This document shows positions 20,572-23,995 of a stretch of 64,000 nucleotides of DNA, one piece after another. The DNA is taken from NCBI GenBank assembly GCA_964016885.1, contig OZ024740.1, positions 88,474,001 through 88,538,000 of the forward strand. The letters run 5' to 3'. Below the pieces are notes generated by a model. That model made no database searches and had not been told where the DNA came from. It was given only the letters and a program-made list of their open reading frames with translations. Positions within the stretch are counted from its first letter, which is position 1. The number at the start of each line of letters is the position of its first letter. A program made the position numbers and the translations under genes. Source of the stretch: Eledone cirrhosa. Taxonomy: Eukaryota.

Positions 20572-21534
20572 TAATAAGGAAATACAAGTCAACAGATTAA
20601 AATTTACTTCATTTATTCATTATATAATCGCTGAAATAGATTCTAACCTGTTGACCTGTACTTCCTCACTATATATGCATATATATGTATATATATATAG
20701 TTACACTTTTTCTCTCGACTGACCTCTTCCTCGCACTTCCACTCACTCACTCTCTGTTTCTCCCCTTCTCACTTCCTCCCGTTCGCTAGTAGTGGGGTTC
20801 CTTCTTTCTCACACCGCATTCACGGCGTACGGTCTGCTTCTCTGACCGCTCATGAAATTCACCCAGCTTATGCTGATCGGATAACTATCATGTGGCTTGC
20901 TGTTTTCCAACTTTCGGTTTGCTTTTCCTTCTGTTGTTTACTTGTCTCACTCGCTTTACGCGTTTCACTTGTCCCAATAGCTTATTTTAGTTATTGCTCG
21001 CACCAACCTGAGGTATCTTATTTTTAATGCGATGAAATACCTATGATGGTTGGCAAAATCACTGATGAGAGACTAATTTTATAATATGTAATCCATGTGC
21101 AACCATGCAGTATTCTTCTCCCCTTGGTTTTTCATATATATATATATATATATATATATATATATATATATATATATATATATATATATATATATATATA
21201 TGTATATATATATATATATATATATATATATATATATTGAAACAAAATGAAAACGAAATTTCATTTCTCACTCTTAGTATGGCACTTACTTAAATGTAAG
21301 TATGCATGTATACGTACATACATATATGTATACAGACGTACAGTAGCATGCACACATATATATATATATACATATATACATACATATGCATACAGGTACA
21401 CATACATATATGCACGTATCAGTTTAGCGGCGCTAACGTCGCTTTGTTCGTTTGTAAACAAACTGAACAGCCTGAATTTATGCAATACGGTGTTAAGGCA
21501 ACCACGTCACCTTTTTGTTCAACACTGACACAGG

Positions 21535-21579
21535 AACGATGTACTAGTTTCAAGCTTGTTAGCTATCATCAGCACCGTT
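21535..21579 (-). ncRNA. Minimal type I hammerhead ribozyme (also at 22001-22045, 22467-22511, 22933-22977)
   Basis: aacggtg-CTGATGA-tagctaacaagctt-GAAA-ctag-TA-catcgtt: 7-bp stem I, short stem II, palindromic ACTAGT stem III, GUA cleavage triplet. Confidence 0.88.
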
Positions 21580-23534
21580 TACCCATCTGCCAGATAGTTG
21601 AACGTTCGAAAGTATATACTTTCCTTATGAAAATTAACGGCTGAGCAGCCTAATTTGCATATTGAGTGAGTTAAATCGGTCAGGCATACCGAAAACGATA
21701 AATTGAAACAAAATGAAAACGAAATTTCATTTCTCACTCTTAGTATGGCACTTACTTAAATGTAAGTATGCATGTATACGTACATACATATATGTATACA
21801 GACGTACAGTAGCATGCACACATATATATATATATACATATATACATACATATGCATACAGGTACACATACATATATGCACGTATCAGTTTAGCGGCGCT
21901 AACGTCGCTTTGTTCGTTTGTAAACAAACTGAACAGCCTGAATTTATGCCATACGGTGTTAAGGCAACCACGTCACCTTTTTGTTCAACACTGACACAGG
22001 AACGATGTACTAGTTTCAAGCTTGTTAGCTATCATCAGCACCGTTTACCCATCTGCCAGATAGTTGAACGTTCGAAAGTATATACTTTCCTTATGAAAAT
22101 TAACGGCTGAGCAGCCTAATTTGCATATTGAGTGAGTTAAATCGGTCAGGCATACCGAAAACGATAAATTGAAACAAAATGAAAACGAAATTTCATTTCT
22201 CACTCTTAGTATGGCACTTACTTAAATGTAAGTATGCATGTATACGTACATACATATATGTATACAGACGTACAGTAGCATGCACACATATATATATATA
22301 TACATATATACATACATATGCATACAGGTACACATACATATATGCACGTATCAGTTTAGCGGCGCTAACGTCGCTTTGTTCGTTTGTAAACAAACTGAAC
22401 AGCCTGAATTTATGCCATACGGTGTTAAGGCAACCACGTCACCTTTTTGTTCAACACTGACACAGGAACGATGTACTTGTTTCAAGCTTGTTAGCTATCA
22501 TCAGCACCGTTTACCCATCTGCCAGATAGTTGAACGTTCGAAAGTATATACTTTCCTTATGAAAATTAACGGCTGAGCAGCCTAATTTGCATATTGAGTG
22601 AGTTAAATCGGTCAGGCATACCGAAAACGATAAATTGAAACAAAATGAAAACGAAATTTCATTTCTCACTCTTAGTATGGCACTTACTTAAATGTAAGTA
22701 TGCATGTATACGTACATACATATATGTATACAGACGTACAGTAGCATGCACACATATATATATATATACATATATACATACATATGCATACAGGTACACA
22801 TACATATATGCACGTATCAGTTTAGCGGCGCTAACGTCGCTTTGTTCGTTTGTAAACAAACTGAACAGCCTGAATTTATGCCATACGGTGTTAAGGCAAC
22901 CACGTCACCTTTTTGTTCAACACTGACACAGGAACGATGTACTAGTTTCAAGCTTGTTAGCTATCATCAGCACCGTTTACCCATCTGCCAGATAGTTGAA
23001 CGTTCGAAAGTATATACTTTCCTTATGAAAATTAACGGCTGAGCAGCCTAATTTGCATATTGAGTGAGTTAAATCGGTCAGGCATACCGAAAACGATAAA
23101 TTGAAACAAAATGAAAACGAAATTTCATTTCTCACTCTTAGTATGGCACTTACTTAAATGTAAGTATGCATGTATACGTACATACATATATGTATACAGA
23201 CGTACAGTAGCATGCACACATATATATATATATACATATATACATACATATGCATACAGGTACACATACATATATGCACGTATCAGTTTAGCGGCGCTAA
23301 CGTCGCTTTGTTCGTTTGTAAACAAACTGAACAGCCTGAATTTATGCCATACGGTGTTAAGGCAACCACGTCACCTGTGAGAAATGAAATTTCGTTTTCA
23401 TTTTGTTTCAATTTATCGTTTTCGGTATGCCTGACCGATTTAACTCACTCAATATGCAAATTAGGCTGCTCAGCCGTTAATTTTCATAAGGAAAGTATAT
23501 ACTTTCGAACGTTCAACTATCTGGCAGATGGGTA

Positions 23535-23579
23535 AACGGTGCTGATGATAGCTAACAAGCTTGAAACTAGTACATCGTT
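23535..23579 (+). ncRNA. Minimal type I hammerhead ribozyme in the inverted unit
   Basis: Same motif read directly on the + strand. Confidence 0.88.
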
Positions 23580-23995
23580 CCTGTGTCAGTGTTGAACAAA
23601 AAGGTGACGTGGTTGCCTTAACACCGTATGGCATAAATTCAGGCTGTTCAGTTTGTTTACAAACGAACAAAGCGACGTTAGCGCCGCTAAACTGATACGT
23701 GCATATATGTATGTGTACCTGTATGCATATGTATGTATATATGTATATATATATATATGTGTGCATGCTACTGTACGTCTGTATACATATATGTATGTAC
23801 GTATACATGCATACTTACATTTATATATATATATATATATATATATATATATATATGCATATATATATATATATATATATATATATATATATATATATAT
23901 ATACAAATAATATATTATATATATACATTTTTATATATGTATATATATTTATATATATATATATATAGATATAGATATGTACACACACACACAAA

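Follow-up and report, generated by a model that had tools for sequence, protein, structure and literature searches.

We analysed a window of 64,000 nt from the Eledone cirrhosa assembly (contig OZ024740.1, positions 88,474,001 to 88,538,000) and found two head-to-head arms built from a 466-bp unit at window positions 21236-23823, set between (TA)n microsatellites at 21134-21235 on the left and 23824-23902 on the right. Positions within the unit were numbered q, with q1 the predicted ribozyme cut. The long arm (21236-23376, RNA sense on the minus strand) held 4.59 head-to-tail units from an inner end at q30 to an outer end at a fixed site, site B (q306), and the tandem-repeat analysis of the window returned it as an array at 21236/7-23376 with a period of 466 and 99% matches. 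Across the array, four full units plus part of a fifth, the only substitutions were 21484 C>A and 22478 A>T. The short arm (23377-23823, plus strand, 447 nt) ran from q271 through the ribozyme to a second fixed site, site A (q248-251); it was 100% identical to the unit and extensible on neither side. The two arms abutted directly at 23376/23377, q30 against q271, with zero overlap and no inserted bases. The tail between the two fixed sites (q252-q306/310; 21236-21290, minus strand) was present at the outer end of the long arm and missing from that of the short arm. Each unit had one AT-rich, microsatellite-like internal block (21310-21420, minus strand). A target duplication longer than 4 bp was unreadable because both flanks were (TA)n. 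The element had no ORF, with no stop-to-stop frame of at least 150 aa overlapping 21236-23823, and the bins holding the array had a GC content of 34-35%.

These results agreed with the original prediction of a near-identical 466-bp concatemer of about 4.6 units with roughly two differing positions, one hammerhead per full unit and insertion into (TA)n. Its description of an array that starts mid-unit was correct, but the start was a fixed site common to thousands of copies and not an arbitrary phase. The terminal inverted unit was also confirmed (447 bp, identical), but its apparent nature as a second, separately primed arm had been overlooked, as had the Penelope-like character of the footprint. 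The unit was the same as units at unlinked loci save for one base common to all units here, in line with the recent insertion that had been proposed, and every segment of this locus carried a G at q187. The assignment to the retrozymes held as well, with a hammerhead motif in each unit and thousands of low-GC, non-coding copies. No LTR pair was found and the tandem units had type I hammerhead topology, which separates the element from plant-type LTR retrozymes; the lack of an RT and GIY-YIG ORF within it separates it from an autonomous Penelope-like element (PLE). Taken from its sequence, the locus is supported as a young non-LTR retrozyme insertion.

The type I hammerhead motif (CUGAUGA..GAAACUAGUA) started at 21572, 22038, 22504 and 22970 on the minus strand and at 23542 on the plus strand. 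The full motifs covered 21536-21578 (predicted cut after GUA, between 21542 and 21541), 22002-22044, 22468-22510 and 22934-22976 in the long arm, and 23536-23578 (predicted cut between 23572 and 23573) in the inverted arm. The 22478 substitution lies in the third of these and breaks its stem III palindrome, ACUAGU. Stem I (6 bp plus an extension past a bulge) and stem II folded as expected. The motif is atypical in that U.U occupies the position of the usual hammerhead pair, G10.1-C11.1. Rfam gave no match in the window array at gathering thresholds, and below threshold a weak HH9 match (18.5 bits, E 0.39) at 4/5 motifs. The microRNA models that dominated the Rfam E-value scan were rejected, as they matched the AT-rich block by composition. 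The putative hammerhead was thus called from motif, fold and conservation, not from Rfam. Stem III was only 2 bp around the palindrome and was absent in the constrained fold, so cleavage would likely need a ribozyme dimer, by analogy with the dimeric ribozymes described for amphibians in the available text of PMC7229834.

To place the locus in its family, we searched the 3.0-Gb genome with exact patterns. The 30-nt ribozyme core had 10,692 exact matches and its reversed control had 0. The site B end followed by TA gave 2,509 matches, and the site A end followed by TA gave 1,390 on the forward strand (the reverse-strand count of 2,491 was double-counted). These counts put the number of insertions at no fewer than 2,500, and several thousand is probable. 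We examined 54 loci covering the first 100 listed ribozyme matches, 18 loci chosen by one end, 59 chosen by the other end and 45 from variant and junction searches; the first third of contig C1 supplied most of the sampled loci. Across loci the length of the unit ranged from about 445 to 575 bp, mainly through variation in the internal AT-rich block, which also hosts later insertions including PLEs and a second retrozyme family (L149, L171, L159). Two unlinked arrays, L176 and L288, were each uniform for the same haplotype (a 6-bp insertion, a 1-bp deletion at q370 and A386G), which suggests either source and daughter or siblings. No RNA run on record was listed as containing the sequence. Three low-share 'RNA?' runs gave 1, 0 and 0 contigs against the unit, which counts neither for nor against expression.

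The outer ends of the arms were fixed throughout the family. Arms pointed outward, with 3' ends that joined (AT)n at one of two positions about 59 nt from each other, site A at q248-251 and site B at q306-310. When one automated rule was applied to 177 regions, 94 of the 96 adjacent left/right end pairs were A+B, with one A+A and one B+B (binomial p ~1e-25 against 0.5). On manual inspection of the 59 loci chosen on their B end only, 38 had a clear A partner and 2 an A-like partner, one ended at another phase (q264), 10 were nested, broken or cut off, and 8 were without a partner arm. At loci chosen by the ribozyme alone, the called ends abutted (AT)n almost throughout, and an independent run also had site B joined to (AT)n (X23, place 23416). 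The A+B pairing is near-obligate here, and this locus followed it: its long arm ends at site B and its short one at site A. What varied from locus to locus was the position of the inner ends and the number of units. The comparison of phase and copy number that had been proposed thus gave a divided answer: the expected variation was found in inner ends and unit numbers, but not in the outer ends. The original prediction had held fixed ends at all other loci, together with the lack of a unit-length RNA, to count against a circular template; because the outer ends at other loci were fixed, half of this was observed.

Two fixed ends bounding a tail, together with an inverted arm, are by sequence a Penelope-like footprint, and mobilisation by a Penelope-type enzyme is very probable. 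The available text of PMC8557442 and PMC3846280 describes PLE insertions with partial tandems, a neighbouring truncated copy in inverted orientation, and a tail of 30-40 bp that is often one-sided. The purified PLE protein, as far as the available text of PMC11167929 describes it, is a predicted dimer that cuts AT-rich DNA; in vitro, both strands are extended and two RNA start sites bound the tail. In the same work the lizard PLE used uncleaved RNA, and ribozyme mutants were without effect on insertion. As a control, we mapped an ORF-bearing PLE family of this genome and found two fixed ends 66-67 nt apart in (TA)n at 27/30 loci, the anchor being missing at the remaining 3. A further family of 21,315 copies had two ends about 80 nt apart.

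No PLE with an end resembling the 466-bp unit, and no pLTR homolog, was found in the 292 sequences searched (1.35 Mb of the 3.0-Gb genome). The PLEs neighbouring the retrozyme at L035, L047, L158, L171, L149 and L197 were considered as mobilisers and rejected, as they belonged to different PLE families and were mostly nested or adjacent insertions. Pfam returned no family for the candidate PLE proteins; we take them to be PLE from an RT core, a Cys-rich finger and a GIY-YIG-like C-terminus recognised by motif, and the end anatomy also supports this. The window itself contained a broken fragment of the control ORF-bearing PLE at 48748-50072 (minus strand); a minimal hammerhead was present at 48860, and the fragment's long-form end lay in (TA)n. 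This PLE had at least 150 close relatives in the genome. Composite junctions were seen as well. At L038 (3858-3905) and L061 (3520-3590) a site B retrozyme arm stood head-to-head with an arm of the 21,315-copy family at the latter's short site, which suggests arms from two different RNAs, or a later deletion. At L035, L055 and L058 a site A retrozyme arm was joined directly to an element ending in (ATG)n, either a chimera or an insertion-associated deletion.

We then compared units within and between loci. Near-identity of units alone is no evidence of rolling, since two unlinked loci can have units that are just as similar. For ribozyme-centred segments (302 segments, 107 loci) the mean distance was 0.013 for pairs within an arm, 0.016 for pairs from opposite arms and 0.042 for pairs from different loci. 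Across 18 young loci the locus haplotype was usually common to all units and both arms, as at L138, L146, L181, L077 and this locus. L146 has G327A, for example, and one L035 arm has three private changes in all 4 of its segments. Subfamily-variant calls differed between arms in 22/93 cases, some of them from mis-paired or old loci. Uniform private haplotypes, unlike near-identity, are evidence for rolling. The cut junctions had exact spacing in 321/325 copies, unlike the untidy joins that would be expected of template jumping.

Inner ends were examined on the rationale that linear cleaved monomers would give inner ends at q1 and primary transcripts would give inner ends at the start site. The genome-wide patterns gave 11 matches at q1 (the cut), 8 at q421 (the predicted start) and 11 at the control q17, most matches in all three sets being true head-to-head junctions, so there was no excess at the ribozyme cut or the predicted start over the control, in a test whose outcome trimming of run-off ends could blur. 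One inner end exactly at the predicted start (L158) was set aside, the genome-wide test having no excess there. Inner-end phases of 29 arms showed no clear departure from uniform (KS p=0.06) after 10/59 loci that were nested, mis-parsed or cut had been dropped; early arm mapping was confounded by the TATA palindrome and the microsatellite block and served only for rough inner-end positions. The cut was crossed by 29/49 B arms, and B arms with 0 to 7 ribozymes numbered 19, 15, 7, 2, 3, 0, 1 and 2. Inner junctions had 0-8 nt of overlap in 17/24 cases and 1-10 extra nt in 7/24.

One variant, C446T, behaved differently. It had 20 genomic matches and was uniform at no multi-ribozyme locus; at most of these loci it was single. 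Locus L276 carried it in both arms in the order normal, C446T, normal. At X097 (L097 and L186, G000:C1:69577500-69587500), a young array whose two arms have 4 and 15 ribozymes and in which a three-unit variant block recurs, both arms shared the order C446T, plain, 8-bp deletion. A variant confined to a subset of units and in the same order in both arms implies multimeric templates or gene conversion between arms, and a monomer circle cannot give such an order without later gene conversion. Perhaps a weakened ribozyme left multimers at X097 and L276 uncut. Signs of later DNA-level shuffling were also seen at X097 and in the old array L053/L098. Taking all the evidence together, a circular RNA template is probable for most insertions. 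The circular template of the original prediction is thus still the best reading, but the reason it drew from phase was wrong, since the outer ends are fixed; other evidence favours rolling-circle copying, namely the haplotypes common to all units and both arms, inner ends that do not cluster at the cut, the exact spacing of the cut junctions, and the conservation of the core and promoter motif.

Each unit, including those of the long arm, carried ATGCAAATTAG followed by a TATA box 42 nt on. In the short arm this U6-like promoter motif lies at 23454-23501 (plus strand), with ATGCAAATTAG at 23454-23464 and TATATA at 23496-23501, and the predicted transcription start at about 23527 is just 5' of ribozyme stem I. 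Three distinct U6 upstream regions of the genome had the same block at -76 to -78 and a TATA near -30, and the block was absent from 4/4 U2 upstream regions checked. The motif occurred once in 196 kb of background. T4 and longer runs are present near site B. Such runs should stop Pol III, so read-through from the predicted U6-type promoter fits poorly with them. A tandem U6 gene cluster was seen at L087-L096 (G000:C19:31.78-31.84 Mb), and in its U6 copies L091 and L096 a different repeat stood immediately 5' of the TATA box, where the octamer block would be.

Variation across the unit was measured at loci picked without regard to the ribozyme (157 copies, 51 loci). Variants found in at least 4 loci affected 1/56 core, stem and promoter sites against 31/179 other sites (Fisher p=0.0015, which is optimistic because loci are related by descent). 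The ribozyme core and the promoter motif are conserved. The frequent variants were at N7, in loop II and in stem I, where G.U became A-U.

The reading we favour, and consider rather likely from the sequences, is a retrozyme that borrows a Penelope-like RT/GIY-YIG enzyme, which would nick both strands and use two start sites to copy a single 466-nt RNA, probably a circle. A U6-type promoter within each unit would drive read-through transcription, successive hammerheads would excise a monomer and a host ligase would close it. A PLE protein dimer would then bind the hairpin region at about q232-q310 and prime a separate cDNA at each of sites A and B; each RT would roll until it falls off, here after 4.59 and 0.96 turns, and the two cDNA ends would be joined and repaired. 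The narrower version, in which every insertion is one enzyme dimer rolling round a single ribozyme-made circle that has its own U6-type promoter and whose two sites serve both TA-cut strands, is put forward tentatively, as a possibility just short of probable. Within that reading the circle carries its own promoter, so ribozyme excision would let a promoter-bearing unit propagate.

The same twin priming at A and B could act on an uncleaved or partly cleaved multimer, linear or a dimer or larger circle, with no need for a monomer circle. The ordered variants common to both arms at L276 and X097 point that way, as do the atypical ribozyme and the in vitro PLE insertion with unprocessed RNA (in the available text of PMC11167929). 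However, inner ends did not pile up at the predicted start (8 against 11 in the control), and the ribozyme core is conserved. Many different haplotypes, each uniform over a whole locus, would need a one-unit bottleneck, and the unit number of a daughter could never surpass that of its source. When the source of X097 was sought, the 1,390-bp C446T spacing was found in no second array among the 20 genome-wide matches. We regard a multimeric template as unlikely, though it stands ahead of the other alternatives. Insertion of arms of about one unit, followed by DNA-level amplification through unequal crossover or slippage, is the model proposed for vertebrate retrozymes in the available text of bioRxiv 10.64898/2026.07.22.740005; the three-unit block recurs within X097, and L053/L098 have variants common to subsets of units. 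But arrays without internal substitutions already have 6-10 units (L162, L175, L138), in many cases each arm has several units and the inner phases of the two are unrelated, and ribozyme number per B arm declines smoothly. As a general account this is quite unlikely, although DNA-level amplification probably contributes in older arrays.

Two further explanations concern the inverted arm and the assembly. If one cDNA primed itself or snapped back, or if an antisense template were copied, an inverted arm would arise with no second target-primed event; such an origin is proposed for PLE inverted repeats with palindromic junctions (in the available text of PMC3846280). Here the outer end of the inverted arm is instead a fixed start site at (TA)n, almost always the other site, and inner junctions join unrelated phases (q30 to q271 at this locus), which makes such an origin very unlikely. 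That the array was assembled wrongly from a single unit is the least credible of all. The units are nearly identical and the inner junction was bridged by no contig among those listed, which is itself uninformative; against this, the window sits inside a 443-Mb contig, units have private differences, this anatomy recurs at other loci, with 1-15 units and haplotypes specific to each locus, and the join of site B to (AT)n recurs in the independent run (X23).

The element class, the PLE link and one-sided tails are already in print, as far as the available texts go. For animal non-LTR retrozymes, circRNA templates giving tandem cDNA were proposed, and PLEs were singled out as strong candidates for the mobiliser (Cervera and de la Pena 2020, PMC7229834, available text). 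The present family resembles them in its thousands of copies and in its low-GC, non-coding units, which are arranged in tandem and each have one type I hammerhead, but its unit of 466 bp (about 445-575 across loci) is above the 170-400 nt given in the available text of that paper and slightly above a published range of 150-450. As a rule the arms here stand head-to-head and have fixed, complementary ends, whereas the word 'inverted' is absent from the main text of PMC7229834. Animal non-LTR retrozymes are also marked by RNA self-cleavage and by linear and circular monomer RNAs, both of which are predicted features of the present family. With endonuclease-bearing PLEs, as described in the available texts of PMC8557442, PMC3846280 and PMC11167929, it shares two RT start sites bounding a one-ended tail, an inverted partner, partial tandems, (TA)n targets and a ribozyme with a palindromic stem III. 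Unlike them, the element here has no ORF and up to 15 ribozymes per arm. Its tail of about 59 nt compares with the 30-40 published for PLEs and with 66-67 nt for this genome's own PLE. The tail is optional or often one-sided in the available text of the PLE papers, whereas the A+B pairing here is near-obligate. Neither this rule nor such a footprint in a retrozyme was found in the literature searched, with most subscription journals outside its coverage.

Li, Clavereau and Pollet (bioRxiv 10.64898/2026.07.22.740005, available text) describe retrozymes as non-autonomous PLE derivatives, and our conclusion about the mobiliser is the same. Their evidence is co-occurrence in Xenopus and pLTR homology, and they favour local tandem amplification; the evidence here is the integration footprint, no pLTR homolog having been found in the sequences fetched. 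The words 'tail' and 'promoter' are absent from their main text as available. Newt satellite 2 has an snRNA-type promoter, described as Pol II in a secondary source (PMC2220036, available text). It is likewise a hammerhead repeat with an internal snRNA-type promoter (here predicted), but the motif in the present family resembles the genome's U6 genes (octamer plus TATA) and not U2. Both retrozyme mobilisation and the origin of the tail, inverted and tandem structures of PLEs are stated as open in the available literature. The present family supplies thousands of short natural products that follow a near-absolute rule, one arm per site and usually the same template haplotype, which makes both questions directly testable with the existing PLE in vitro assay. 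If a dimer does roll round a circle, one rule would cover PLE tails, inverted copies and tandems, and the footprint would identify the retrozyme mobiliser.

Several other elements were observed in the window. A second, diverged retrozyme family was present at 28985-30129, with a 467-nt unit that was 61% identical over the alignment. Its hammerheads at 29241 (minus strand) and 29807 (plus strand) had the canonical G-C pair in stem II, and it had the same octamer, a ribozyme core with different stems, both A/B ends and an extra internal inversion. Other hammerhead-like motifs were seen at 28746, 31706 and 31998 (all minus strand), with a ATGCAAAT octamer upstream of 31998. Repeated fragments of LINE-type retrotransposons occupied 1-18400 and 43500-46200, and Pfam RVT_1 was matched at 8471-9508 (plus strand) and 11878-13236 (minus strand). 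Palindromic insertions of other families were found at 23997-24357, 28330-28520, 30874-31290, 41814-42279 and 47300-48680, mostly beside (TA)n, and at least the first three of these had one short and one longer arm.
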